The notes: a model not told the origin generated them from the sequence alone. A stretch of 64,000 nucleotides of DNA from a virus (IMGVR_UViG_2974592485_000001:32001-96000), one strand, 5' to 3'. Shown: positions 1 to 12,183, numbered from the stretch's first letter. A program made the numbers and translations.

Positions 1-14
1 GTCACGAGTTTTCA

Positions 15-212
15 TTACAGTGTTTCCTGAATTTCAGTAGCAAATACACCTAAAGCTAATGCGAACGCTGCCTTGGTCTCATCCGTAACTGCCAGTTCAC
101 TTTTTAAAGCTTCCATAGTGGCATACGTTTTCTGGTACACTTCTTTAGCAGAATCAGGCAACTCGGATAACAGCCCTTTCATCATTAGGGCTACACAAGT
201 ATTTTCGTTCAT
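15..212 (-). CDS. hypothetical protein (65 aa)
   Basis: ORF with AAGGA RBS directly downstream of the promoter at 248-276. Confidence 0.7.
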   Translation of the reverse strand: MNENTCVALMMKGLLSELPDSAKEVYQKTYATMEALKSELAVTDETKAAFALALGVFATEIQETL

Positions 213-247
213 TCGGATTTCCTTTGTTAGTTGACTTTATAATAAAC

Positions 248-276
248 ATTATATCAAATATAGAGTATAAAAGCAA
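248..276 (-). promoter_or_regulatory. T5-type sigma70 promoter
   Basis: Minus strand TTGCTT-17nt-TATAAT with an A-tract upstream. Confidence 0.85.
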
Positions 277-294
277 CTGAATTTTTAGTAAATT

Positions 295-369
295 TGGTGT
301 TCTCCCAGGGAATTGAACCCCGACCCTGTCGTTCGTAGCGACATATTCTCTCCATTAAACTAGGAGAAC
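295..369 (-). tRNA. tRNA-Arg(ACG)
   Basis: Cloverleaf; acceptor GTTCTCC/GGAGAAC, anticodon arm TGTCG-CTACGAA-CGACA, encoded CCA. Confidence 0.92.
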
Positions 370-376
370 ACAAATT

Positions 377-452
377 TGGAAGCGAGTGATAGAATCGAAC
401 TATCCTGTATAGGGATATGAGCCCTAGCAGTTCTCCAGAACTGTAACTCGCA
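377..452 (-). tRNA. tRNA-Met(CAT), initiator-type
   Basis: Anticodon arm TAGGG-CTCATAT-CCCTA with three consecutive G-C pairs; 1:72 mismatch; CCA. Confidence 0.85.
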
Positions 453-458
453 ATTGTA

Positions 459-533
459 TGGTAGTTAGTAGTGGAATTGAACCACTGTCTTCTGCTGTAT
501 GAAAGCAGTGCATAACCATTCTGCCAACTAACT
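459..533 (-). tRNA. tRNA with CAT anticodon (Met or lysidine Ile2)
   Basis: Acceptor AGTTAGT/ACTAACT, arm CTGCT-TTCATAC-AGCAG, CCA. Confidence 0.85.
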
Positions 534-538
534 ATAAT

Positions 539-616
539 TGGTGGCTCCCCGAGGATTCGAACCTACGTACCTTTCGATTATGAGTCGAGTGCTCATACCA
601 TATGAGCTTGAGAACC
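539..616 (-). tRNA. tRNA-Met(CAT), elongator-type (Ile2 not excluded)
   Basis: Arm CTCGA-CTCATAA-TCGAA, T-loop TTCGAAT, CCA. Confidence 0.85.
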
Positions 617-620
617 AATT

Positions 621-697
621 TGGTACACCACCCCAGATTCGAACTGGGAACTCTGAAGTCTTAAGCCTCATGCCTCTGCCAATTGGGCCAGTGGTGC
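621..697 (-). tRNA. tRNA-Leu(TAA) with short variable arm
   Basis: Arm TGAGG-CTTAAGA-CTTCA, 5-nt variable region, CCA. Confidence 0.88.
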
Positions 698-703
698 GTT
701 AAA

Positions 704-862
704 TTATTTCTGTTCTACTTTTAGAACATCTAAATGCTTTTGATTATTAAAGAAGTCCGTCCTAAGTCTAAATTCTGACTTAGCATATACACAGAAAGGT
801 GGCTGAGGCTTCCCTCTCTTACTACCTTTATTATAGCATGTGGTAACTAGGAACTTAATCAT
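704..862 (-). CDS. small hypothetical protein (52 aa, MIKFLVTTCY...)
   Basis: Hand-translated ORF below the track cut-off, starting 1 nt after the stop of 864..1202. Confidence 0.6.
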   Translation of the reverse strand: MIKFLVTTCYNKGSKRGKPQPPFCVYAKSEFRLRTDFFNNQKHLDVLKVEQK

Positions 863-863
863 A

Positions 864-1202
864 TTATCGAATCTCGTAACCTTGATGATACCGTGGGAAA
901 GGGGAGCCTACTTCAAAACAAATAGCCCACTCAATCTCGATTAGCTCTACTTTACTGTAGCTTTGCCCACGATCAGTAAATACGTACTGCATAAACGAAG
1001 GTGCAATAATCTGCGCATCGTCTTCAGACAAGTACACTAAATCTTCCGTGCGAAGACCCTCGTATTCTTCGAAAAATCGTTCAACAAAAAACTCTGGAAC
1101 AATAATAGTATCTTGCTCAACTGTATCATCAGTACGGTATACTTTGATACTGAAGAGAGACACACCGAGTAAGTTAATAGCAGGAGTTGTAAAAAGTTCC
1201 AT
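864..1202 (-). CDS. hypothetical protein (112 aa)
   Basis: ORF track; start overlaps upstream stop (TAATG). Confidence 0.75.
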   Translation of the reverse strand: MELFTTPAINLLGVSLFSIKVYRTDDTVEQDTIIVPEFFVERFFEEYEGLRTEDLVYLSEDDAQIIAPSFMQYVFTDRGQSYSKVELIEIEWAICFEVGSPFPRYHQGYEIR

Positions 1203-1387
1203 TACGCACCTTCAATATCTAGAGAAATTTTAAAAACAGGATTAATACCTGTTCCCTTGCATGTGGGACATTCCCATACAATATAGCCTATGTCCCCTGG
1301 TTCTGCGTCATCTTGTGTACCTGTACCCCAACAATCAGTACACATACACTCTTCAAGTTCTTGCTGTAGCTCTTGAAACCTAGACAT
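1202..1387 (-). CDS. small DnaJ-type zinc-finger protein
   Basis: Two CxxCxGxG motifs (CTDCWGTG, CPTCKGTG); AGGAG RBS. Confidence 0.8.
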   Translation of the reverse strand: MSRFQELQQELEECMCTDCWGTGTQDDAEPGDIGYIVWECPTCKGTGINPVFKISLDIEGA

Positions 1388-1406
1388 GCTATCTCCTAGT
1401 TAAAAT

Positions 1407-1485
1407 TGGTAGACCGCCTGGGACTTGAACCCAGAACCTTCCGATTAAAAGTCGGGTGCTACTAAACCTATTGAGCTAGCGATCT
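1407..1485 (-). tRNA. tRNA-Lys(TTT)
   Basis: Arm CCCGA-CTTTTAA-TCGGA, acceptor AGATCGC/GCGGTCT, CCA. Confidence 0.92.
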
Positions 1486-1490
1486 ATATC

Positions 1491-1583
1491 TGGTAAAGGG
1501 TGTAGGAGTCGAACCTACATACTAGAAGCTCGAAAGTCTAGTGCATTAGTCCTTGCATTCACGCGTTACTATGCTAACCCTTT
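1491..1583 (-). ncRNA. aberrant tRNA-like RNA (expanded D loop, 10-nt anticodon loop)
   Basis: Perfect acceptor AAAGGGT/ACCCTTT+ACCA and T arm GTAGG-TTCGACT-CCTAC, but ~24-nt D loop and CTAGA-CTTTCGAGCT-TCTAG arm. Confidence 0.75.
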
Positions 1584-1589
1584 AGAATT

Positions 1590-1668
1590 TGGTGGAGAAT
1601 AACGGATTCGAACCGTTCTGGTATCCTCGGTGCAAGCGAGGCGTCCACTCCAAGCAGACCCATTCCCC
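1590..1668 (-). tRNA. tRNA-Ala(TGC)
   Basis: Arm CCTCG-CTTGCAC-CGAGG, G3:U70 pair, CCA. Confidence 0.92.
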
Positions 1669-1677
1669 TGAATTTTG

Positions 1678-1839
1678 TTATATAGTACGACCGTTTGACC
1701 AACAAGACAACCACTGTTTAACCATACTAATATTTTCGTCAGAGTGGCCTTCCTTTCGCATGATCGCCTCTAGCTGAATGTAAGAGTACTTCTTTCGGAA
1801 CACACGTTTAGCGTATAAGTAAGCGTCATTTTTAGTCAT
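1678..1839 (-). CDS. small hypothetical protein (53 aa, MTKNDAYLY...)
   Basis: Hand-translated ORF filling the gap between tRNAs; AAGGG upstream. Confidence 0.6.
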   Translation of the reverse strand: MTKNDAYLYAKRVFRKKYSYIQLEAIMRKEGHSDENISMVKQWLSCWSNGRTI

Positions 1840-1857
1840 ATCGTACCCTTAATAAAT

Positions 1858-1935
1858 TGGTCTCCCCGACAGGATTCGAACCTGTGACCCGATGCATCCA
1901 AGGCACCTACGCTGACCAGACTGCGCTACGGAGAG
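1858..1935 (-). tRNA. tRNA-Pro(TGG)
   Basis: Arm GGTGC-CTTGGAT-GCATC, CCA. Confidence 0.92.
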
Positions 1936-2152
1936 TTATTATTCATACATTTTAAGAATATATTCTTTTGTTTCTTCAACACTAGAAAGACTTATACTCT
2001 CAAAAGAATTAAAGATGGTAGTTTTAACATTGCCATTTACAGGCAAATTGATTTTCATTATCTTAATTTCATTATGAAAAACAGATATTGGTACCATCTT
2101 TTTCTTCAACAAAATCTATCATTTGATTTCCTCCCTAACTTTCAATACAAAT

Positions 2153-2181
2153 ATTATATCAAACTTTAAGGAAGAAAGCAA
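2153..2181 (-). promoter_or_regulatory. T5-type sigma70 promoter
   Basis: TTGCTT-17-TATAAT. Confidence 0.85.
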
Positions 2182-2188
2182 ATAAATT

Positions 2189-2536
2189 TTAAAACTTTTT
2201 AGTAAACCAGTTAATAGTCTCACCAGTATCCTGCTCATACCAGTTAACAAGCTCAGCTAGATTTCTAGGAGCATCCGTAGTTTTAAGATTTGCTAAATAA
2301 TGGCCAAGTCTATTCCAACTTTGCATATCCATTAAAGGCACACCTAATTCGCTACCAAAAGGTGAGGCGTCATGGATATCTACACGTCCTGCCCCATATT
2401 TGGTTTCATAAGTTCGAATCTTAACTACTTCACCTAAAATAGAGTTGAACTTCTCTTCCTCGGTATATGGGATATTATTCTCCTCATACCACCTATTGCT
2501 AACTGGCCCCATCCAATTTAGGAAATAAGTAACCAT
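2189..2536 (-). CDS. hypothetical protein (115 aa)
   Basis: ORF track, operonic with 2538..2882. Confidence 0.75.
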   Translation of the reverse strand: MVTYFLNWMGPVSNRWYEENNIPYTEEEKFNSILGEVVKIRTYETKYGAGRVDIHDASPFGSELGVPLMDMQSWNRLGHYLANLKTTDAPRNLAELVNWYEQDTGETINWFTKKF

Positions 2537-2537
2537 T

Positions 2538-2882
2538 TTATGCCCTTACTTTTGTTAAAGTAATCCCTAGACTTTCTAAGAATCCTTTAGCTCCATACAT
2601 ACTATCTACAGCCGCAGGGTTGTGGGAATGGATATTGATTTTTTGTATAGAAGAAAGTTGCCCATTGAAAATTGCTTCTTCAATAAAACTTAGTACATCT
2701 TTACCTTCTTTTTCAGTTCCTAGATCATTATCCAAAGAAACATAAGTTATATAGGGTCTTTCTTGCAAAAGACGTATAGCATCCACATAGTTATCAACCC
2801 ATATAACATGATTGATTCCCTTAGTAAAGATAGGGTAATCTTTAGGATCACGTAAATCATCAACCCAAAGTAATGTTTCCAT
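2538..2882 (-). CDS. cyclic-phosphate-processing receiver (cREC)-like protein
   Basis: Motifs LWVDDLRDP, VSLDNDLG, GKDVL, IHSHNP typical of this stand-alone receiver family. Confidence 0.75.
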   Translation of the reverse strand: METLLWVDDLRDPKDYPIFTKGINHVIWVDNYVDAIRLLQERPYITYVSLDNDLGTEKEGKDVLSFIEEAIFNGQLSSIQKINIHSHNPAAVDSMYGAKGFLESLGITLTKVRA

Positions 2883-2912
2883 TTGTATTTCCTCTCACTA
2901 ATTTATGAACAT

Positions 2913-2941
2913 ATTATACCCTAAATTAAGAAGAAATGCAA
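2913..2941 (-). promoter_or_regulatory. T5-type sigma70 promoter
   Basis: TTGCAT-17-TATAAT. Confidence 0.85.
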
Positions 2942-2953
2942 ATGAATTTTTAG

Positions 2954-2977
2954 AAAAATAAAGCCACCGAAGTGGCT
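2954..2977 (-). terminator. intrinsic terminator
   Basis: AGCCAC-TTCG-GTGGCT followed by a U-rich tail. Confidence 0.75.
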
Positions 2978-2985
2978 GTAAAATC

Positions 2986-3255
2986 TTAAACTCGATGAAT
3001 AATCTTTACTGTCTGGCCTTGGTCATTCATGAGGTATGAAGACTCGTTCTTATGAACGAAGATGGTCTTATCCTCAGAAACAACAGACGCAACTACGGAA
3101 TCAGAGTCTGGGCTACTGTAGCCTTCAAAGTGAAACTGAACTCTTACATCTACACTTAACTCAATAAAGTGCTCTTCTTCATCTACCTCAAAGGGTACTG
3201 AATCGAAAATTCTTGTCCCCGCAGGGAGTTTGCGAATAATTTTTAAAGTATACAT
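2986..3255 (-). CDS. hypothetical protein (89 aa)
   Basis: ORF track; AAGGAG RBS. Confidence 0.75.
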   Translation of the reverse strand: MYTLKIIRKLPAGTRIFDSVPFEVDEEEHFIELSVDVRVQFHFEGYSSPDSDSVVASVVSEDKTIFVHKNESSYLMNDQGQTVKIIHRV

Positions 3256-3286
3256 AGTGCTCCTTAGTAGTATTTAGTAGTACTAT

Positions 3287-3784
3287 TGACACGGGTATTG
3301 CCCTTCCGAAGAAGGGCTAACCCAGGCTTGTAACTTGTCATTTCTGTTTTAAGTTGGATAAGTAGTCACATAAGGGGATCTTTGTAGTTAGCCGATAGAG
3401 TACCTTATATGCTAAACCATTGACTGAAAGTTGATAGCTTCCCATACTTTGACAAGGGGATCTCTTTTGTTTTTAACGTGGATTCGTTGATCAGTTGAAC
3501 CACTACGTCTGGTCTCCCAAACGCTAGGGCAATGGCTATCTAAAGCCCTAGCTTCTACAACTCAGTGGATAGCATGAGTTAGTTATGCTGTCTCGTATCG
3601 ATTTACAGGCTTGTGGGACAGTATCCGCTGATTATTCATAACTATAGTGTAGGTTACGTGTCAGTCCAACAAAGTGAGACTATCATCCTACGTACTGGCA
3701 AGGACGGTGAACCAGTACCGTTTACACATTTTAAAGTCAACCGTCATCCTTGCTAGAAGACAAGCCCCTAGACTTACCGTGTCA
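3287..3784 (-). ncRNA. candidate ~500-nt large structured ncRNA
   Basis: No sense ORF; ends pair (3287-3294/3777-3784); many internal stems, a cUUCGg loop and a pseudoknot. Confidence 0.65.
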
Positions 3785-3818
3785 CCGTTGTTTCAGGATC
3801 GTACTTGCCCATCAGTGA

Positions 3819-3977
3819 TCATTCTTTTAACTTTGCTATTGCGTCAAATAGTGCTGATAATTCAGCCTCGGCATTAACAATGCTTGTATCTAGCTCGGTC
3901 TTTTCCTTGTTGAGGTTCCTTAATCTTTGCTCAACAATGCTAGCTCGATTCTCTAGAAGTGATAGAGGTGAATTCAT
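3819..3977 (-). CDS. small coiled-coil protein (52 aa, MNSPLSLLENR...)
   Basis: Hand-translated ORF with AAGGA RBS; heptad pattern. Confidence 0.65.
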   Translation of the reverse strand: MNSPLSLLENRASIVEQRLRNLNKEKTELDTSIVNAEAELSALFDAIAKLKE

Positions 3978-3991
3978 ATTTGTTCCTTAAT

Positions 3992-4066
3992 TGGTGCTCC
4001 CACTAGGATTCGAACCTAGTTCTGATGCTTACAAGGCAACTGCATCGCCATCAATGCTTTGGAAGC
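3992..4066 (-). tRNA. tRNA-Thr(TGT)
   Basis: Arm GTTGC-CTTGTAA-GCATC, CCA. Confidence 0.9.
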
Positions 4067-4075
4067 TAAGTTATA

Positions 4076-4279
4076 TTAATCTTTCAGAGGTTTGGATGTA
4101 CGAGTACCTTTATACTTATACATTTTACGACGCTGCTTTTCTCGCTTATAAAGTTCACGTCCACAACCAGCAGCTAAAACTCGTGGGTATCGACCTGCCT
4201 CATATGTAGTTTCCTGTGCAGGTACACCATACCCTTCTTTCACAATACGACGACATAATTTTGCTTGCTTACCATTCAT
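4076..4279 (-). CDS. small basic hypothetical protein (MNGKQAKL...)
   Basis: ORF track; start moved to the ATG with AAGGA RBS. Confidence 0.7.
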   Translation of the reverse strand: MNGKQAKLCRRIVKEGYGVPAQETTYEAGRYPRVLAAGCGRELYKREKQRRKMYKYKGTRTSKPLKD

Positions 4280-4299
4280 ACTTAGGTTTCCTTTTGTTA

Positions 4300-4427
4300 A
4301 GTTTGGGAGATATCTATTGATATCACACACTGTACCCCTGCCACGAATTTGTGGTTCCTGTGTGATCCTACCTGAGCACTCCTCGTGGAAACTGCTCTAG
4401 TAGTTCATAAAAGATATCACCTAAACT
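4300..4427 (-). ncRNA. candidate structured RNA with loop-loop pairing
   Basis: Closing inverted repeat 4300-4315/4412-4427 (14/16); inner stems; CCACGA/TCGTGG complementarity between loops. Confidence 0.5.
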
Positions 4428-4433
4428 CAACTC

Positions 4434-4581
4434 ACTTATTAAGACGCTCTTCTCGTATTATGAGTACACTGAGGAATAGAGGTGCGAGTTCTATTATTAT
4501 CCTAACCTTACCGCCGTAAAGTTTCAGAGTCGTCTTAATAAGTAAACTTTCGTTTACTTATACTCCTGTCGGCGGTAGGTT
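4434..4581 (-). ncRNA. candidate pseudoknotted/switchable RNA
   Basis: 13-bp stem 4434-4446/4531-4543, crossing stem 4504-4516/4570-4581, competing GAAA hairpin 4539-4560. Confidence 0.5.
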
Positions 4582-4723
4582 CTAGTGCGGCCTAGAATGT
4601 CTACCCTACAATACAGAAGATTTTAGCAAGCAGAACGGCCGGAACTAACTTGCCTTGTTTACTACTAGCCTAGTAGACACACAAGCTGTTACACGAATAT
4701 GCAAGCTCAGCCTTAGTAGATTT

Positions 4724-4868
4724 TGGTGCGGTCAGAGAGGTCATTCTAGACAGGTATCGAACCTGCTATCACCACTGCGGAATTACGAGCTTGCCCTTTG
4801 ACTTCTACGGAATTGAACCGTACCTCAACCCTCGAATGGCTGGTTTCCCCATCAACCACGCTAGAATG
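4724..4868 (-). ncRNA. tRNA-like RNA with two T arms
   Basis: Acceptor-like stem 4742-4749/4861-4868, D-like arm, T arms at 4750-4766 and 4806-4822, CCA at the end of a 3' extension. Confidence 0.6.
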
Positions 4869-4939
4869 TTTATTAATGAGCAGAGTCCGGTGTAGCAGTC
4901 CGTAAGGGTGCACCTACTGTAGCCTTTACTCTGTTTGTT

Positions 4940-5016
4940 TGGTACTCCCAGAAGGACTTGAACCTTCAACCCTCCGCTTAAGAGGCGGTAGCTCTAACCA
5001 GTTGAGCTATGGAAGT
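4940..5016 (-). tRNA. tRNA-Lys(CTT)
   Basis: Arm ACCGC-CTCTTAA-GCGGA, CCA. Confidence 0.9.
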
Positions 5017-5127
5017 GTTTAATGAATAGCCATAAAAATGACTATTGGTTAAACACATCTTTGTGTTCGTCGGCTTGCATCTTTCAGCGTCGCAGGGAGA
5101 GTACCGTCTCTTTACCCCTACCCAATT

Positions 5128-5202
5128 TGGCGCTACCGATGGGATTCGAACTCACATATTCCCCGTGAGAGAAGAGTATCATATCCACTAGACTATAGTA
5201 GC
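5128..5202 (-). tRNA. tRNA-Glu(CTC), degenerate stems
   Basis: Loop CTCTCAC, G discriminator, CCA; mismatches in acceptor, anticodon and T stems. Confidence 0.65.
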
Positions 5203-5208
5203 TTTAAT

Positions 5209-5285
5209 TGGCGGGCAGTGCTGGGTTCGAACCAGCTATCCTTCGCTTAACAGGCGAGCGCATGTACCATATATGCTCACTACCC
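5209..5285 (-). tRNA. tRNA-Asn(GTT)
   Basis: Arm CTCGC-CTGTTAA-GCGAA, CCA. Confidence 0.9.
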
Positions 5286-5289
5286 AAAT

Positions 5290-5585
5290 TTGTTGCTAGG
5301 AAGAAACCTGATTCGGAAAAACAATCCCAGCGATTTTTAGCAGACTTTTAGTTATTGGTTTAGATTAAGCGGAGTTTCCTCGGCAAATCCCTGATCAAGC
5401 TGGCTTTTGCACAGCCACCCACTTGAAACTGCTTACCTCACGCCACAAGTTAATGTCAGTATGGCGATTGACTTAGTGCAAATTCTTTATACTGCTTTGG
5501 GTGTTTCGGGGTTACTCAATACTGGTTCTACTATTAACCCTTATTCGAACTGCTAACCAGTTTAAGAGCGTACTCACAGTATAAA
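5290..5585 (-). ncRNA. candidate cluster of small structured RNAs
   Basis: ORF-free; stems 5366-5378/5425-5435 and 5486-5494/5577-5585; two apparent pseudoknots. Confidence 0.45.
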
Positions 5586-5587
5586 TT

Positions 5588-5661
5588 TGGACGACGATAC
5601 TGGATTTTAACCAGTCTAAAGAAGTTTGCAATTTCTCACCTAGTCACTCGGACAATCGTCG
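5588..5661 (-). tRNA. tRNA-Cys(GCA)
   Basis: GCA anticodon, U73 discriminator, CCA; atypical T loop TTAAAAT. Confidence 0.8.
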
Positions 5662-5687
5662 GTTCTTTACTAACTTTCAATATAAAT

Positions 5688-5716
5688 ATTATATCAAATA
5701 ATATAGCTGAAAGCAA
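5688..5716 (-). promoter_or_regulatory. T5-type sigma70 promoter
   Basis: TTGCTT-17-TATAAT directly upstream of tRNA-Cys. Confidence 0.85.
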
Positions 5717-5724
5717 ATGAATTT

Positions 5725-6201
5725 TTAATCAACAAGCTTCAGAGTAGGGCAATATTTTTCTTTTTTAGCCTTCAGGAACTCAACCGTAATGTTAGTTGCG
5801 GATACTAACTTTTTGTTAGATACTGCCGCCAGTTTTCCTACTGAAGACTCTTTAAGGTTTCTTTTACGTGCAAACTCTGTAACCCTGCCCCAGTTTTTTC
5901 TGATCAAGAATCCTAGACCAAAAATTCCGGAGGCTACTGCTGCACCTACTAAGGGTAGCACGTACAGAGTTGCTAGCGTACCTTTAAGCCCTACTAGGAA
6001 ACCTGTTGCCATTCCCACTAATCCACCAATGATTAGTAATACTGCCCAAATAAACACTAAAAGTGCAGCAGTTTTGGCTACGTTGCCAAACGTATACCAA
6101 AAGTATTCACAACCGTTTTCTAACTCATCTGCTGTGAATCTACTACCCATAGCTCGGTTAAATCGATGTAACTTAGAAGACTTACTAATAGTCCAAGACA
6201 T
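5725..6201 (-). CDS. membrane protein (two hydrophobic segments)
   Basis: Hydrophobic stretches AALLVFIWAVLLIIGGLVG and LYVLPLVGAAVASGIFGLGFLI. Confidence 0.75.
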   Translation of the reverse strand: MSWTISKSSKLHRFNRAMGSRFTADELENGCEYFWYTFGNVAKTAALLVFIWAVLLIIGGLVGMATGFLVGLKGTLATLYVLPLVGAAVASGIFGLGFLIRKNWGRVTEFARKRNLKESSVGKLAAVSNKKLVSATNITVEFLKAKKEKYCPTLKLVD

Positions 6202-6202
6202 A

Positions 6203-6397
6203 CTATTTCCTTATCACAATAAAATGTTTTCTTAAGCAAGAAGACGAAACCCACACTTCTTTACCTAGGTCATCAATTATTAGTAAACCTGCTCTTCTAG
6301 CACTTCTTGCTATTACAGGGTATTCTACCCCCATAGAAGTATGCTCTAATAAATGACCCCCTATGAAAGTTTCGTTATACTTTCTAGTAAGTTTCAT
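6203..6397 (-). CDS. hypothetical protein (64 aa)
   Basis: ORF track; AGGAA RBS. Confidence 0.65.
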   Translation of the reverse strand: MKLTRKYNETFIGGHLLEHTSMGVEYPVIARSARRAGLLIIDDLGKEVWVSSSCLRKHFIVIRK

Positions 6398-6411
6398 ACT
6401 ACTTTCCTATT

Positions 6412-6486
6412 TGGCAAACCCGCTAGGATTCGAACCTAGACCAGCAGTTTTGGAGACTGTTATGCTACCATTAACACCACGGGAAT
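6412..6486 (-). tRNA. tRNA-Trp(CCA)
   Basis: Loop CTCCAAA, G73, CCA; two U-U mismatches in the acceptor stem. Confidence 0.8.
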
Positions 6487-6492
6487 ATTGTT

Positions 6493-6599
6493 TGGAGCCT
6501 AGCCTAGGATTCGAACCTAGATGTATTTAACTCTACTGTTAGTTCGAGTACGTTTGACCAGCCTGGATGGGCTGCGCCAGTCCAACTGGCCACTAGACT
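6493..6599 (-). ncRNA. 107-nt tRNA-like RNA (6-bp D stem, 6-nt anticodon loop, very long variable region)
   Basis: Acceptor AGTCTAGT/GCTAGGCT+CCA, D arm GCCAGT-TGG-ACTGGC, CAGCC-CATCCA-GGCTG, T arm CTAGG-TTCGAAT-CCTAG. Confidence 0.75.
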
Positions 6600-6605
6600 A
6601 TAATT

Positions 6606-6680
6606 TGGTGCCCCCTGTTCGTAACGATCGAACCTCTCAAGCTCTTCAGGCAAGCGCTAATCCGTCTCAGCTAAAAGGGC
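6606..6680 (-). tRNA. tRNA-Phe(GAA), atypical
   Basis: Loop CTGAAGA, CCA; T loop ATCGTTA and two U-U mismatches in the anticodon stem. Confidence 0.8.
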
Positions 6681-6688
6681 ATAATTTG

Positions 6689-6994
6689 TTATTCTTCAGG
6701 ATTCATTGCTTCGTCAATGAGGTCACTTAAATCAATCATACCAATTGACAGGTTACGAAGTTTAAAGACCCGTAAAACCGCTTGGTAGTCTTCTTCCTGA
6801 ATAGAATCTAGCTCTACGGCTAATTCGTTAACTTGAACGGCTTCATTTGTGCCAAAGTAAATCTCCTCAGTAGAAGAGAAGCACGCTCCTTGGGTAAGTA
6901 CCAGAAAGGCTGCCTGCTCGGCAGAGATCTCGTGCAAACCAGAAACATCAAATTCATCTGCATAATTACCTGAAATCCTAAGAATGTGTCGCAT
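6689..6994 (-). CDS. hypothetical protein (MRHILRISG...)
   Basis: ORF track; start moved to the ATG with AGGAG RBS. Confidence 0.75.
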   Translation of the reverse strand: MRHILRISGNYADEFDVSGLHEISAEQAAFLVLTQGACFSSTEEIYFGTNEAVQVNELAVELDSIQEEDYQAVLRVFKLRNLSIGMIDLSDLIDEAMNPEE

Positions 6995-7076
6995 TGTGTA
7001 TCTCCTAAGTAATATTAATGAATAGCTATTATGCTGGAACAAAATAACTATTGGTTAATACCTCTTTGACGATATT

Positions 7077-7153
7077 TGGCAGGGAATGCAGGACTTGAAC
7101 CTGGCTCTATGGGAGTCAAAGGCCCATGTGCTAACCTGTTACACCAATTCCCA
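7077..7153 (-). tRNA. tRNA-Gln(TTG)
   Basis: Loop CTTTGAC, weak 1:72 pair, G73, CCA. Confidence 0.88.
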
Positions 7154-7159
7154 ATTGTT

Positions 7160-7235
7160 TGGTACACCCAACGGAACTCGAATCCGTATTCTTACCTTGA
7201 AAGGATAATGTCCTAACCTATTAGACGATGGGTGC
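7160..7235 (-). tRNA. tRNA-Glu(TTC)
   Basis: Arm TTATC-CTTTCAA-GGTAA, CCA. Confidence 0.9.
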
Positions 7236-7242
7236 ATTTGTT

Positions 7243-7324
7243 TGGTGGGGCGTCTTGGATTCGAACCAAGGTGTGGTATGCCGGATTTACAGTCCGGTGC
7301 CTTCAACCGCTCAGCCAACTCCCC
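7243..7324 (-). tRNA. tRNA-Tyr(GTA)
   Basis: Arm CCGGA-CTGTAAA-TCCGG, extended variable region, CCA. Confidence 0.9.
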
Positions 7325-7333
7325 CAAAATTCT

Positions 7334-7636
7334 TTATGTATTTGACACATCTGGCATCCCAACATACTTAGGGACTACCTGTAGTTGAAACACCCAAGAA
7401 GTTACGTCTTCAAAGGTATCATCATTGTACTGACTAATAGTAGCAACCATATTAGTTAGGTTAATCTCTAAGTCTAGCCGTTTACTATTATCCACAGGTA
7501 CTTCTGCATCTTGCAGCTCTGTTAGAACTTCTGGAGTTAACACTACACTGTAGAATACCATCCATTCGTTATCCCCGTCCCAACCATCCCATGAAGTTAC
7601 TAAGCAACTCTCAATACCGCTAGCAATTAATCTCAT
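7334..7636 (-). CDS. acidic hypothetical protein (100 aa)
   Basis: ORF track; AAGGT RBS. Confidence 0.7.
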   Translation of the reverse strand: MRLIASGIESCLVTSWDGWDGDNEWMVFYSVVLTPEVLTELQDAEVPVDNSKRLDLEINLTNMVATISQYNDDTFEDVTSWVFQLQVVPKYVGMPDVSNT

Positions 7637-7683
7637 ATCAGTATACCTTTAGTAGATGAAATTTTCAAGATAATAATTTAATT

Positions 7684-7773
7684 TGGCGGAAGGAGAGGGA
7701 CTTGAACCCACAAGGCTGTTTTGCAACCCACTGATTAGCAGTCAGCTCACTTACCAAATTAGTGTATCCTTCC
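7684..7773 (-). tRNA. tRNA-Ser(GCT)
   Basis: Arm GCTGA-CTGCTAA-TCAGT, long variable arm, G73, CCA. Confidence 0.92.
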
Positions 7774-7787
7774 AAATTTATAAATAT

Positions 7788-7816
7788 ATTATATAATAAA
7801 ACAAAGCGTTTAGCAA
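7788..7816 (-). promoter_or_regulatory. T5-type sigma70 promoter
   Basis: TTGCTA-17-TATAAT just upstream of tRNA-Ser. Confidence 0.85.
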
Positions 7817-7841
7817 ATGCATTTTTATATAATCTATCTAT

Positions 7842-7861
7842 TGCCCCACCGAAGTGGGGCA
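7842..7861 (-). terminator. GC-rich hairpin at operon end
   Basis: TGCCCCAC-TTCG-GTGGGGCA; weak U tail. Confidence 0.55.
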
Positions 7862-7871
7862 TACTAACAGC

Positions 7872-8459
7872 TTACTGTGCTCTTAGAGAGATTGGAGACT
7901 GAACTCCACTATTAAAAATCTCTTGAGTACGTGAATCAGAAATTACCTGACAGAGTGTGTCCAAGTTCTTCTTAGGGAACCCAGCAAACTTCAGCCAATA
8001 ACCTTTCCAGAAATAATCCAGATTGGTACGGTAATTACGACACTCTTGTAGTTTAAGGGTCTGAGCAATACGGAACTCATCTCGACCTGCCTCAATAACA
8101 GTCTGTAGATTTACAAACAGTTTTGAATCGAACTGTAAGTTATTTTCCTGAATCCACTGCATTACTGCTTTAGAACCACCAGAGCCGTAACGGCCTTCAA
8201 ACGTTGCCTTGATGACCTCTTTCAAGTCATTTTGGTACATCTCAGGAACTTGAATCATCTCCTGAATCTTAACTGTGTATGTAGACAGCTTATTTTCAGA
8301 ATCCTGATTTAGTAACACGATCTGGTTTTCAAACCGTGCACCCTCATTAGTAGCACTAACATAGCTAGCAAATAAAGTACCTCCAATTACCAAAGCAAGT
8401 GCAAAAAGACCTGCCAATACAATCCCAACTTTAGCTCCAACGGTAAGTTCTTTGCTCAT
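7872..8459 (-). CDS. N-terminally anchored helical protein, LemA-like
   Basis: Start MSKEL with GAGGA RBS; single TM then helical domain ending ...YRTNLDYFWKGYWLKFAGFP, reminiscent of LemA. Confidence 0.6.
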   Translation of the reverse strand: MSKELTVGAKVGIVLAGLFALALVIGGTLFASYVSATNEGARFENQIVLLNQDSENKLSTYTVKIQEMIQVPEMYQNDLKEVIKATFEGRYGSGGSKAVMQWIQENNLQFDSKLFVNLQTVIEAGRDEFRIAQTLKLQECRNYRTNLDYFWKGYWLKFAGFPKKNLDTLCQVISDSRTQEIFNSGVQSPISLRAQ

Positions 8460-9522
8460 TAAACAAATCCTCTTTGTGTACATAGTATGCTGCGCCAATA
8501 GATGCTAGCAAGTTAACAATCATTAGGGTGATTAACACTGACATAGGTATTTCAATACTTTCCACCATGTACTTAAATGTTTCGTTAGGTAGACGATGAA
8601 ATTCCTTTGCTATCAGATCAGTCTGACGTTGCACTAACTCTAGTGAGAGAGCACTATCAATAGTCTCAATCCTCAGTCTAGCAAGTAATTCTCTGTTATC
8701 TTGACCATCAGCAAATGAGGTAGCTTTAAACCACTTAACTTTGCTAGAGTCTTTTTCTAGACCATAAACTAGAACCACATCATTTTTCTTACCACCTTCC
8801 CAAGCATGATAAAGAGCTTGGTAGAAGTCTTCTTCAAACTCAGTAACTACAACAGTTATGTTAACCTGCTTATCGGCTCCCAAAGTTTTAAGACGTTCGT
8901 TCAAATAGTGGTTAATGTAGTCATAGTTCTTACCATTAGTAGTTACCACTCGGTTAATCTTGTAGTAATCGTAAATACGAGGATATTTAGGAACTCTACC
9001 CTTGTACTTTTCTACTATAGTTTCATCAGTATGAAAACGAGATTCATCAATTAGCAGGAAGTTTCTAGTAAACTTTTCATCTGCTGCAAAGTCTCCAATA
9101 CTTACTTGAGTAAAACGAGGAGGTTCTTTAAGACCCCTACGGTCTACACGGTCTATGTCAAAGTAGCCTACGGTAGTTTTAACTGTCCAGTCTATATCGT
9201 AAGAATGCTCATCACAGTATATTGGAACACAGGTCTGGTTACCTTTAGAGTCCGTACTACAAGTTTGCCCACACTGGTACTGATGCTCGCATGAGACTTT
9301 CTCACTGTACTTATCTAATACATACCCATTCCAAATTTCTGTATCGCCTGTTTTGGCGTGCATAGCTAACGCTAGAAACCCACAGAGGAGTGCGGTAACT
9401 CCTAAATTAGCTAGAAACTGAACACCCCATTCTTTCAATGTAATTGTGTGGTGAAATACCCACTTAGCTAAAACTGTTACACACAGTGCAGGCAACATAA
9501 GTAGTAAAAGATAATACCCCAT
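8431..9522 (-). CDS. multi-TM membrane protein with Cys-rich and TPM-like exported region
   Basis: Two N-terminal TMs, Cys-rich segment, ...WEGGKKNDVVLVYG..., C-terminal TM. Confidence 0.65.
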   Translation of the reverse strand: MGYYLLLLMLPALCVTVLAKWVFHHTITLKEWGVQFLANLGVTALLCGFLALAMHAKTGDTEIWNGYVLDKYSEKVSCEHQYQCGQTCSTDSKGNQTCVPIYCDEHSYDIDWTVKTTVGYFDIDRVDRRGLKEPPRFTQVSIGDFAADEKFTRNFLLIDESRFHTDETIVEKYKGRVPKYPRIYDYYKINRVVTTNGKNYDYINHYLNERLKTLGADKQVNITVVVTEFEEDFYQALYHAWEGGKKNDVVLVYGLEKDSSKVKWFKATSFADGQDNRELLARLRIETIDSALSLELVQRQTDLIAKEFHRLPNETFKYMVESIEIPMSVLITLMIVNLLASIGAAYYVHKEDLFNEQRTYRWS

Positions 9523-9875
9523 TAGTCCTCCACAAGTATGTCAGAGGATTTGTGAATTAACTCTGCTTTTGTAGACTCAAATGCTGCTGCTAGTAGCAAG
9601 TATTGAGTTGATAACTGACTTCGTACCTCAGATATATCAACTTGCAACCCTTCTGTAAAACCTTCTCTGACTTTATCGTAAGCAGCCCTCATTACATTAA
9701 GATAATTTCTATCTGTTTCAGGGATATCTGTAGAGTACTGTATTCCGTTTACTTCAACATATACCTTAAAAGGTATTTGAGTACACCCTGAAATGGCTGC
9801 TCTAACTCTCTTTAAATTCCCTAGCCTAGACTGTAGTCTAGAGATTTCACGTTGTAATTCTTCTACAGTAGCCAT
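9522..9875 (-). CDS. hypothetical protein (117 aa)
   Basis: ORF track; AGGAG RBS. Confidence 0.75.
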   Translation of the reverse strand: MATVEELQREISRLQSRLGNLKRVRAAISGCTQIPFKVYVEVNGIQYSTDIPETDRNYLNVMRAAYDKVREGFTEGLQVDISEVRSQLSTQYLLLAAAFESTKAELIHKSSDILVED

Positions 9876-9897
9876 AGTAGCTCCTAGTTAGTAAAAT

Positions 9898-9972
9898 TGG
9901 TACGCCCTATAGGAATCGAACCTATATCTACGGCTTAGAAGGCCGCTGCTCTATCCATTGAGCTAAGGGCGC
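9898..9972 (-). tRNA. tRNA-Arg(TCT)
   Basis: Arm GCGGC-CTTCTAA-GCCGT, CCA. Confidence 0.93.
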
Positions 9973-9974
9973 GT

Positions 9975-10960
9975 TGTATTTTTAAGAACTCTCGTAAAAG
10001 CTCTTAAAGATACTGACTAGAAATAGTATCCTGACGATACAGGTTTACTCCTAGTCAATAGTCTCAGTTTTTAAAGTCATGCGTAGACTTGTTCACGGTT
10101 AGTGGAGCTAATCTCCAACAGGTATTACATCCTAGACCTTATAGGGTCATGACTCCACATTTTCGTCTAGGCACCATCGCAACATATTTTGCGTGCACCA
10201 TCGTATGTTTATTGATGTCCTTTACCCATCTTCTCAATGAGTTATCCCGTGCGTTTGGTTGAGGGCTGAGAGGCCACCTCAGATTCACTCAACTATCCAA
10301 GCTCTGTACTAAACGTTACAAACTCGAACCAGAGCGTAGAGTTTATGAGCAGTTTTACAGTCTGACAACTGTACGGTTTAGCTATTTCGATCTAACCTTG
10401 ATAAGACACATCGTGGCCGATTTGCCCTCATAGTATGTACTCTAGCAGCGATCGCGTAGCTATACGCATCAAACACCTAACTCTTTCCCACTGTAGGACT
10501 CGAACCTACGCCTGTACCCCTAGGGTACTATCATTTCCAACTAGACCAAGAGGGCAGTGTTGTTACGTGATCAATTTCGACACCCCGTAATTTGTGGCTG
10601 GTACACCCCTAATAAGACATCCTATTGGCATCCTACTCCAGACATACACTTCCCACATTTAGTAAAGAAGAGTTTACGAGATTCTCAGTCAGCACTGAGG
10701 TTTTCTAGAGGAGAGCGAGCCACAATTCCGAACTTGTCATTCCTCAAACTCACAGATTCTCTCTAGGTATACTCACGATCCAGTTTCACCCGCTAAGACT
10801 ACTACATCCACGTGTACCTCAGCATAGTCTGCCTGCTGTTCTTTACTACATAAATTAAAGCATTTTAGGTGTGCGGTGTGGCACTTTAACCTCTTAAGAG
10901 TACCCGAAGTGAACTTTTAGGATCTGACTCCCTCTGTAAACCTTCTTTTCTTTAATTTAT
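9975..10960 (-). ncRNA. ~1-kb ORF-free structured RNA region with an embedded tRNA-like domain
   Basis: Lies directly below the promoter at 10967-10995; dense stems and pseudoknots; D/T-arm module at ~10486-10554 without CCA. Confidence 0.65.
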
Positions 10961-10966
10961 GAATCT

Positions 10967-10995
10967 ATTATACAGATTATTTAGCTAAAAAGCAA
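10967..10995 (-). promoter_or_regulatory. T5-type sigma70 promoter
   Basis: TTGCTT-17-TATAAT. Confidence 0.85.
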
Positions 10996-11003
10996 ATGAA
11001 TTT

Positions 11004-11276
11004 TTAATTAAATTCGTCCAACAACTTAACTATTATATCCCCATGACACAGGTTAGGCTTACAAAAACAACCTAAACGCTTCCCCTCTAAGGCTAGAAGT
11101 CTATCTTTAAACGTAGAATCTGTAGATAGCCTATTTCTTAAATGCATCTCATATAATTTAATGCATTTTATTAGGCCATAATCCCTAGCCTCAAAAGGGT
11201 TTCCAAACTCAGAAGGGCGACCTATGTACACATCATATTCTTCGCCCTTCTTTATATTTACTACTTTAGTAGTCAT
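11004..11276 (-). CDS. DUF4326-family protein
   Basis: YIGRPSxFGNPF ... LGCFCKPxxCHGD motifs. Confidence 0.85.
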   Translation of the reverse strand: MTTKVVNIKKGEEYDVYIGRPSEFGNPFEARDYGLIKCIKLYEMHLRNRLSTDSTFKDRLLALEGKRLGCFCKPNLCHGDIIVKLLDEFN

Positions 11277-11722
11277 TTTCCTGCTTCTTTCAAAACTCTG
11301 TCAGCAATCTGTGATGCCATCTTACCATCATACTGACCAGCAAACTCTGCCTTAAGTAGTCGCATTAAAATGGCTTTAGTAATCACAGTATCTGTGTTTA
11401 GGTCAATAACTTGATTGAAGTACTGGACTAATTGGGCTTCCGATAGCAGTACAGGTGCATAACGTTCCCATAGCTCATCTAGAAGCTCTACAAACAGCTG
11501 ATCAGGTTGATAATCAATCCCCAGCTCATTGGCTTTTGCTTCCGTAGTCTCAATAGCTTTATTTTGAGACTTGATATATTTTAAGAGTTCATCACGACTA
11601 ATGTAATCTTTGTTTATACGTTGTAAGTCCCCTAACACTGTAGATACCGCTACAGTTGGATAACCGTTTTTACGAAAGGTTTCTAGGATTTCTCGTAGAA
11701 CCGTAAGCATATTTTCGCCCAT
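11273..11722 (-). CDS. GatB/YqeY-domain protein
   Basis: Helical protein with ...YAPVLLSEAQL... and ...GQYDGKMASQI as in YqeY; T5-like synteny. Confidence 0.75.
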   Translation of the reverse strand: MGENMLTVLREILETFRKNGYPTVAVSTVLGDLQRINKDYISRDELLKYIKSQNKAIETTEAKANELGIDYQPDQLFVELLDELWERYAPVLLSEAQLVQYFNQVIDLNTDTVITKAILMRLLKAEFAGQYDGKMASQIADRVLKEAGK

Positions 11723-11730
11723 GATACTTC

Positions 11731-12183
11731 CTATGTTTTTGGTTTATAAAACTTATGCCCATCTATTTTCTTTGTTTTATCTAAGCTCTTAGCCCAATAA
11801 GGGTCTTTTCCACTATGGAAATATAGTGCCCCATGTGTCAAGTCCTCTGTCCAACCTTGGTAATATGTGATTTCAGCTAGTTTCTTAGCCTTATCCCACG
11901 CTTTCTTATTTTTTATCTTTAAACTTTTGTGCTTAGTCCATGTGAATTGACTTGGCTCGTATACTACGGAACAATATGTTGTAGGAAATTTGTTACTATA
12001 AACCCTGTTCCTAATAACTTGTCCCACAGCAGCCTGACCTTCTAAGGAAGTACCTCTAGCTTCAAAGTATATAGCTTGTGCTATACAAGAGATTTCCTTA
12101 GTGTCTTTAGCACTTTTAGTAACCGTACCTACAGTATCATGAGGAATAGTTAGTAAAAGTGTTAACAGCAGCTCTGTTATCAT
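11731..12183 (-). CDS. SleB-like cell wall hydrolase
   Basis: CIAQAIYFEARG, AVGQVIRNRV, QFTW, GALYFH, IDGHKFY. Confidence 0.92.
   Translation of the reverse strand: MITELLLTLLLTIPHDTVGTVTKSAKDTKEISCIAQAIYFEARGTSLEGQAAVGQVIRNRVYSNKFPTTYCSVVYEPSQFTWTKHKSLKIKNKKAWDKAKKLAEITYYQGWTEDLTHGALYFHSGKDPYWAKSLDKTKKIDGHKFYKPKT

Follow-up and report, generated by a model that had tools for sequence, protein, structure and literature searches.

Comparative evidence for a conserved, pseudoknotted RNA structure beside the tRNA genes of T5-like phages

Comparison of related phage sequences showed that a conserved, predicted pseudoknotted RNA structure spans positions 3295–3632 on the minus strand of the window, the window being the whole stretch of 64 000 nucleotides analysed here, which is part of a 106-kb record from a T5-like (Demerecviridae) virus. 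We consider it probable (approximately 0.6) that this interval encodes a structured, non-coding, pseudoknotted RNA of ∼340 nt belonging to T5-like phages, which would be transcribed with tRNAs, processed, stable and active in trans.

Results

The structure lies in an ORF-free stretch between tRNA genes and an 89-amino-acid ORF

Every tRNA and every plausible ORF around the RNA region is carried on the minus strand, and the structural features described below are read from that strand. In the order of transcription, tRNA-Thr (3992–4066) is followed by a 52-amino-acid ORF (3819–3977, 159 nt), an ORF-free stretch of 563 nt (3256–3818), an 89-amino-acid ORF assigned to phrog_8729 (2986–3255) and, 3′ of this ORF, an intrinsic terminator (2962–2977). 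All six frames of 3295–3632 are closed, with 5–10 stops apiece. Neither ARAGORN nor the tRNA covariance model (E ≤ 1) detected a tRNA within 3256–3818, where the helices form no acceptor-closed cloverleaf, and no paralogue of the RNA was found elsewhere in the window. An earlier note, made from the sequence of the window, had described an ORF-free structured RNA within the tRNA cluster; this description held, as all of the frames are closed and a comparative pairing signal is present in 3295–3632.

Searches of Rfam with cmscan under permissive filters (E ≤ 1), covering window positions 1–12000 and the loci of four relatives, yielded only tRNA-type matches. RNase P RNA, group I and II introns, known ribozymes and riboswitches were rejected as identities, giving no match at this threshold, as was tmRNA, which was found neither by ARAGORN (in the window) nor in Rfam and for which the only end pairing is at chance level and unconserved. 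The earlier note had proposed such a search against GOLLD, ROOL, tmRNA, RNase P and introns and had itself been unable to match the RNA to GOLLD or ROOL by eye.

Three other minus-strand intervals of the window (542–616, 5131–5202 and 6609–6680) matched the Rfam tRNA model with 41, 35.6 and 33.4 bits respectively and received no ARAGORN tRNA call, each marking an additional gene for a tRNA or a tRNA-like RNA. Another ORF-poor stretch of the minus strand (4331–4745) is located between an 84-amino-acid ORF (4076–4330) and the next tRNA-like elements.

Homologues are found in several groups of T5-like phages

The core of the region (3521–3580) matched ∼170 phage records at ∼80–85% identity when ∼50 000 phage records were searched by blastn, and nearly all of the records with the core were from T5-like phages of Salmonella, Escherichia and Klebsiella. 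By the same method, Salmonella phage KKP_3831 aligned with 3261–3581 at 78% identity and Enterobacter phage KKP_3711 aligned with 3261–3496. Pectobacterium phage My1 was 70% identical over 3301–3405 and carried two blocks of 98% identity, 3585–3638 and 3682–3730, in swapped order. These blocks correspond to 2622–2675 and 2501–2549 of the My1 locus (L003) and their flanks are only 70–86% identical, which suggests that small RNA modules have recently been exchanged by these phages. In every phage the corresponding region lacks ORFs and forms a gap of 375–650 nt next to tRNA genes.

A degenerate 26-mer identified a few true relatives among viral and metagenome contigs and gave chance matches only in bacterial genomes, the matches of a 16-mer scan of viral contigs were mostly due to chance, and a pattern combining the linker and loop described below gave two chance matches in AT-rich DNA without tRNAs. 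No relatives were found among viral contigs by way of the 89-amino-acid neighbour protein. A covariance model of the core had no match in the whole record of phage T5 st0, and at the syntenic site T5 has tRNA-Met directly beside a PFL-like gene. Full-text searches of the literature found no paper describing the RNA, and the ∼340-nt RNA was annotated as RNA in none of the records inspected. On these comparisons the putative RNA is an undescribed RNA family, carried by Epseptimavirus, Sugarlandvirus, the KKP_3831/KKP_3711 group and, in part, My1.

'Hypothetical protein' calls overlie the RNA in some GenBank records (L005, 1329–1559; L007, 1441–1752 and 1779–1907; L041, 683–859; L043, 730–858; positions within each locus). 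When their translations were compared, frames and lengths differed, acidic residues were absent and the proteins were alike only where the DNA is conserved; these calls are probably spurious annotations.

The predicted fold contains a loop–loop kiss, a pseudoknot and a long-range helix

Read from its 5′ end, the transcript would fold into a hairpin (B′), two hairpins joined by a 6-bp kiss, a hairpin with a GNRA loop, an H-type pseudoknot, a 3′ domain closed by helix P-g and a terminal hairpin with a cUUCGg loop. Of these, the kissing loops, the pseudoknot and the long-range helix (3334–3340 with 3450–3456) are the strongest features and had been missed by the earlier note.

The 5′ hairpin module B′ (3585–3632, stem 3588–3592 with 3617–3621) shows no variant among relatives that are 97–98% identical to the window. 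In My1 its counterpart is 98% identical and comes immediately after tRNA-Thr; in the Klebsiella phages and Eos diverged homologues come immediately after tRNA-Val, and in Epseptimavirus they precede P-a. B′ starts a few bases past the encoded tRNA CCA in My1, Eos and the Klebsiella phages, and the closing stem is retained by means of G-U pairs in locus L019 and phage phiR201.

The kissing-hairpin module (3523–3579) consists of two hairpins, P-a (3560–3564 with 3575–3579) and P-b (3523–3530 with 3545–3552), separated by a conserved junction (3553–3559), the loops of which pair over 6 bp (GAUAGC, 3535–3540, with GCUAUC, 3568–3573). The letters of P-a vary between lineages, reading ACUCA/UGAGU in the window and ACUCC/GGAGU elsewhere. 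P-b, formed by GCUAGGGC and GCCCUAGC, has two-sided changes in three pairs, a GG/CC to AA/UU replacement in KKP_3831 and G-U pairs in S113; the earlier note had recognized this helix, which is real and covaries. Over 23 sequences the kissing helix was 97.8% paired, with two pairs changed from UA/AU to CG/GC in 10 sequences each and a G-U at one pair in 11. In the Klebsiella phages and Eos the two kissing loops have been altered in concert, reading GCCGUC and GACGGU.

Adjoining P-b without an unpaired base is P-c (3507–3522), a hairpin of the form GUUUGG-GAGA-CCAGAC with a GNRA loop, in which a U-G pair exists on the minus strand only. All four of the pairs counted in P-c have two-sided changes, and the hairpin becomes GUGA-GCAA-UCAC in Epseptimavirus. 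Eos and loci L047 and L051 combine a longer P-c with a short 3′ domain. The Klebsiella phages Boggle, Roth37 and their relatives carry in place of P-c a homologue, ∼140 nt long, of the tRNA-like T5 RNA1. This insert occupies exactly the P-c position, at ∼1690–1830 in the Boggle locus (L007) and also in L043 and L059–L062, and has a D-arm-like segment (GCCGGAAUCGGUAUACGG) and a T-arm (GAAGGUUCGAUCCCUUC).

The H-type pseudoknot (3459–3503) is built from P-d (3478–3485 with 3497–3503, one bulged U), an A-rich linker, GUUAAAAACAAAAGA (3463–3477), and a pairing between GAUC in the loop of P-d (3489–3492) and the GAUC downstream of the linker (3459–3462). The window itself has only 4 bp in this second helix, a GAUC/GAUC pairing that by itself is not above chance. 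Within Epseptimavirus, otherwise 93% identical, four covarying variants were found (CAGGAG/CUCCUG, CAGGAA/UUCCUG, CUGGAG/CUCCAG and CUGGAA/UUCCAG), and the Klebsiella phages pair CCCCAA with UUGGGG. The pseudoknot helix was 90.4% paired over 23 sequences, with two-sided changes in two pairs. In P-d the third pair switches from U-A to G-C, while the linker that follows is nearly invariant (ACGUUAAAA(A/U)CAA; family form GUUAAAA(A/U)CAA). The automatic pseudoknot finder misplaced P-d in the Klebsiella-type and Eos sequences, and those pairings were read by eye.

The 3′ domain (3334–3456) is closed by the long-range helix P-g (CUUGUCA, 3450–3456, with UGACAAG, 3334–3340) and holds P-h (3403–3411 with 3367–3375) and P-f (3426–3430 with 3438–3442, loop CUAUCAA at 3431–3437). 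An alignment-free search located a helix of 6–12 bp at the place homologous to P-g in all 18 sequences, representing every lineage; its versions include CUUAUCA/UGAUAAG, UUAUUC/GAAUAA, CUGUUAGUUACA/UGUAACUAACAG, CAAAUAUUAGG/CUUAAUAUUUG, CUUAUUAA/UUAAUAAG and others. RNAalifold, applied to nine sequences, identified compensatory changes in P-f, P-h, an inner hairpin and the terminal hairpin.

Between P-g and the terminal hairpin, just 3′ of P-g, lies the motif ACAAGCCUG (3323–3331), a second copy of which is carried by B′. All lineages, Epseptimavirus among them, carry the form CAAGCCUG, for which no pairing partner was identified. The earlier note had drawn attention to two direct repeats, CAGGCTTGT at 3323 and 3606 and AAGGGGATCT at 3372 and 3454; all four copies exist in the window but the repeats are not conserved as pairs, conservation across lineages being confined to the 3323 copy of ACAAGCCUG and the 3372 copy of AGAUCCCC.

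The terminal hairpin (3300–3317, GCCCUUC-UUCG-GAAGGGC) is the likely 3′ end of the RNA. Its stem exists in five covarying versions, including GCCCUCC/GGAGGGC, CCCCUC/GAGGGG, CCGCUC/GAGCGG and CCGCCC/GGGCGG, and its cUUCGg tetraloop had rightly been taken in the earlier note, which had also found this helix, to point to the minus strand. A 22-nt sequence at 7839–7860 is 82% identical to the terminal hairpin region (3296–3317), with a blastn E value of 4.4 at which a chance match is possible.

Pairing is conserved beyond chance on the minus strand

The covariance model was made from ten Epseptimavirus sequences and contained nested helices only; 23 distinct homologues were aligned to it and pairs were counted after adding the two pseudoknotted helices, the kiss and the pseudoknot, to the nested set. 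This alignment and the alignment-free helix search were used as MAFFT misaligns P-c, P-d and P-g between lineages. Over the 23 sequences 95.8% of 731 cells were able to pair, compared with 36–43% when the partners were slid by 1–3 columns. Two-sided changes were present in 19 of the 38 pairs, many of them representing few independent events in sequences that come from a few close-knit clades, and the covariation score was matched by none of 500 shuffles. The kissing and pseudoknot helices are both absent from the model used for alignment and yet they hold, so fitting of the alignment does not explain them. The same picture was obtained from an ungapped MAFFT alignment of the ten Epseptimavirus seed sequences, which was not fitted to structure.

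With regard to strand, there were 22 G-U cells and 7 A-C cells over all of the pairs, an excess which argues for selection on the minus-strand transcript, and the UUCG and GNRA loops are correct on the minus strand only. Comparison of folding energy with dinucleotide shuffles, a check put forward in the earlier note, gave a divided answer: for 3287–3784 z was −2.56 (minus strand) and −3.70 (plus strand) and for 3295–3632 it was −1.96, but for 3633–3818 it was 0.0. Folding energy is only modestly better than that of shuffles, so thermodynamics alone would not carry the finding. The signal beyond chance is the comparative one, in the predicted helices of 3295–3632.

The modules of the RNA are lost, replaced or reordered

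The order B′, kissing module, P-c, pseudoknot, 3′ domain and terminal hairpin is kept in most lineages. P-a, P-b and P-c are cleanly deleted in KKP_3711 when it is compared with KKP_3831. My1 has no kissing hairpins or P-c and possesses B′, a full 3′ domain and a pseudoknot module of its own, arranged as hairpin-GUUAAAAA-pseudoknot, in which CGAGG pairs with CCUCG and UCUAGC with GCUAGA. These module losses and reorderings, together with a T5 genome devoid of the core, indicate that the element is accessory.

The conserved block ends at the terminal hairpin and at B′

Contigs from two public runs, X1 and X7, represent relatives that are 97–98% identical and match 3295–3998 of the window. Before 3295 they have promoter-like sequence in place of the 89-amino-acid gene, and this break in homology places the end of the RNA block at the base of the terminal hairpin. 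The window has at 2900–2952 a module of ∼50 nt with a promoter (TTTGCA-18-TATAAT), which is repeated at several places in related phages. In X1 and X7 a copy of this module directly adjoins the terminal hairpin, which implies that the 89-amino-acid gene was inserted, or deleted, between two such modules. A sigma70-like promoter directly follows the terminal hairpin in X1/X7, the Klebsiella phages, Eos and My1, and in the latter three it is near consensus (TTGCTA ... TATAAT).

Variant sites in the relatives numbered 3 in 3295–3635, 11 in 3636–3818 and 6 in the 159-nt ORF, from which it follows that the upstream half is less constrained than a protein gene. Seven of the 11 sites lie in the spacer after the 52-amino-acid ORF (3736–3818), for which blastn against phage records found no homologue outside near-identical relatives. 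The remainder is occupied by a lineage-specific module, C (∼3640–3735), comprising a hairpin (3692–3698 with 3712–3718), a GUAGG/CCUAC pairing and a variable hairpin; it is shared with My1 only, where its place is not upstream of B′ but between a pseudoknot module and the 3′ domain. The earlier note had proposed this hairpin and a pairing of its loop with 3740–3752. Both are present in the window but are lineage-specific, and the loop pairing, which is no more than a candidate and has one compensatory change in My1, loses one pair to A3704G in run X7. The interval 3633–3784 is a lineage-specific spacer plus one movable hairpin module, and does not form part of a single closed 500-nt molecule. 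A promoter-like site at 3641–3668 was rejected as the RNA's own promoter: T3645A destroys its −10 element in all close relatives and My1 is without the site.

Discussion

The results are consistent with the following course of events. The RNA would be co-transcribed with the neighbouring tRNA genes and tRNA 3′-trimming nucleases may free its 5′ end, given that B′ starts a few bases past the encoded CCA in four lineages. Its 3′ end would be at the terminal hairpin, followed in most lineages by a new promoter. More tentatively, the RNA might persist as a stable species and act in trans during infection by binding to a protein or RNA of the host or phage, in a function that would be accessory and non-essential, like those of the stable RNAs of the T5 and T4 tRNA regions. 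A metatranscriptome run contained, from a 901-nt stretch, a single contig of 251 nt (3322–3573) which indicates neither strand, ends nor level and may derive from DNA carry-over; this is a weak hint of expression, compatible with an abundant stable RNA. The parts of the stretch left uncovered in that run, and the habitats of runs holding small shares, were given no weight.

The extent of the molecule and the existence of any function in RNA have both to be weighed against other readings. The earlier note had envisaged a single ornate RNA of ∼500 nt occupying 3287–3784, its ends closed by pairing of TGACACGG (3287–3294) with CCGTGTCA (3777–3784), resembling GOLLD or ROOL and possibly multimerizing through the repeated CAGGCTTGT sites, which would dock at 3760–3766. 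All of the motifs that it listed were found where it had placed them, the minimum free energy structure of 3287–3784 uses the end pairing (z −2.6) and the setting in a phage tRNA cluster resembles that of GOLLD and ROOL. Nevertheless, we regard such a molecule as very unlikely. The left arm of the closing stem falls beyond the conserved block, and neither the 97–98% identical relatives X1/X7 nor KKP_3831 has it; the right arm carries C3777T in one relative, and a pair of 8-bp inverted arms at least 300 nt apart occurs in 36% of shuffles of the region. Moreover, the part from 3633 to 3818 folds like its shuffles and accumulates variants faster than the ORF beside it, the docking site falls within the fast-evolving lineage-specific spacer (3736–3818), which also contains the right arm, and has no counterpart in other lineages, and the likeness to GOLLD and ROOL does not extend to an Rfam match at E ≤ 1. 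It is more improbable still that the region has no function in RNA at all and consists of tRNA genes in decay, the remains of small ORFs or an element acting in the DNA, such as a promoter or terminator spacer, an origin or a nick site. The tRNA islands of T5-like phages are mosaics with pseudo-tRNAs, small ORFs are annotated here in some records and promoter-like hexamers are present. Against this, tRNA models gave no match at E ≤ 1, the frames are closed, the annotated ORFs are unconserved in frame and length and the promoter-like site at 3641–3668 is not retained in close relatives, while compensatory changes, an excess of G-U on one strand and strand-specific tetraloops all argue for selection on RNA pairing.

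Two further readings accept a structured RNA and differ over what it does or how many molecules it comprises. The structure may be a leader acting in cis on the downstream ORF, like a riboswitch or a processing or stability element, or may protect the 3′ end of the tRNA operon transcript. In the window, KKP_3831 and KKP_3711 the 89-amino-acid ORF begins ∼45 nt past the terminal hairpin with no promoter between them and a terminator after the ORF, Epseptimavirus has a GrcA-like gene directly downstream, also with no intervening promoter, and aptamers typically have conserved junctions and pseudoknots. The downstream gene nevertheless differs from lineage to lineage (the phrog_8729 ORF, the GrcA-like gene, My1_064 or a 93-amino-acid ORF), a consensus-like promoter separates the RNA from the next gene in the Klebsiella phages, Eos, My1 and X1/X7, and the terminal hairpin has no overlap with a ribosome-binding site. 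The differing downstream genes and, in most lineages, the intervening promoters speak against a leader, which we consider unlikely. On the available sequences the element could be more than one RNA, and B′, the kissing module, the pseudoknot and the 3′ domain might each be an independent small stable RNA or processing signal, placed side by side and shuffled by recombination. Modules are lost or reordered independently of one another, as in KKP_3711, which is without P-a, P-b and P-c, and in My1, with its 98% identical blocks in swapped order; the tRNA-like element in place of P-c in Boggle and Roth37 could recruit the cleavage that processes tRNAs, and T5 itself has runs of adjacent stable RNAs of 100–170 nt. 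Yet the order of the modules is kept in most lineages, P-c adjoins P-b with nothing between them and the boundaries of the modules show no evident processing sites, and we judge separate RNAs to be quite improbable.

As to the role of the ∼340-nt trans-acting RNA that we favour, it might represent a new class of phage RNA with a complex fold and an active part in infection, either as a decoy or inhibitor that captures a host defence or RNA-processing protein, within the arms race in which the neighbouring tRNAs take part, or as a new ribozyme or ligand-binding RNA in which the junctions, the kiss and the pseudoknot form a pocket. This suggestion is speculative and we hold it with low confidence.

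T5-like phages are model phages and candidates for therapy, and their tRNA islands matter against bacterial defences that target tRNAs. The ∼340-nt RNA would join a small set of large phage RNAs, and it lends itself to experiment. Carriers, for example Bas30 TrudiRoth, and the non-carrier T5 both grow on E. coli K-12, KKP_3711 and KKP_3831 form a natural partial deletion pair and the covarying helices provide ready designs for mutants in which pairing is disrupted and restored.

Among known systems, GOLLD (RF02032) and ROOL (RF03087) are large conserved non-coding RNAs with multiple helices that are often encoded beside phage tRNA genes. They measure roughly 580–800 nt, whereas the RNA described here is of ∼340 nt, is limited to some Demerecviridae and has no Rfam match at E ≤ 1. 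tmRNA is likewise an RNA of similar size with multiple pseudoknots, but the ∼340-nt RNA has neither the end pairing of the acceptor and T-arm nor a tag reading frame. The species 1 and species 2 RNAs of T4 (rnaC and rnaD) are small and stable, are co-transcribed with the phage tRNAs, are cut out by the tRNA-processing machinery and are dispensable; they are shorter than the ∼340-nt RNA and are not known to contain kissing loops or pseudoknots. The stable RNAs of T5, annotated as misc_RNA in AY692264 (RNAI, RNAIII, RNAIV, RNA1, RNA2H and rna2), resemble the present RNA in being non-coding, structured and located between tRNA genes and early-region promoters. They differ in size, the six being 103–172 nt compared with ∼340 nt and pseudoknots here, and a blastn search of T5 st0 (24–42 kb) with word size 7 gave only chance matches to the present RNA. 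One of them is nonetheless linked to this RNA directly, in that a homologue of T5 RNA1 has been inserted at its P-c position in the Klebsiella phages. By analogy, the stable RNAs of the T5 and T4 tRNA regions appear to be its closest counterparts, with GOLLD and ROOL comparable in setting only.
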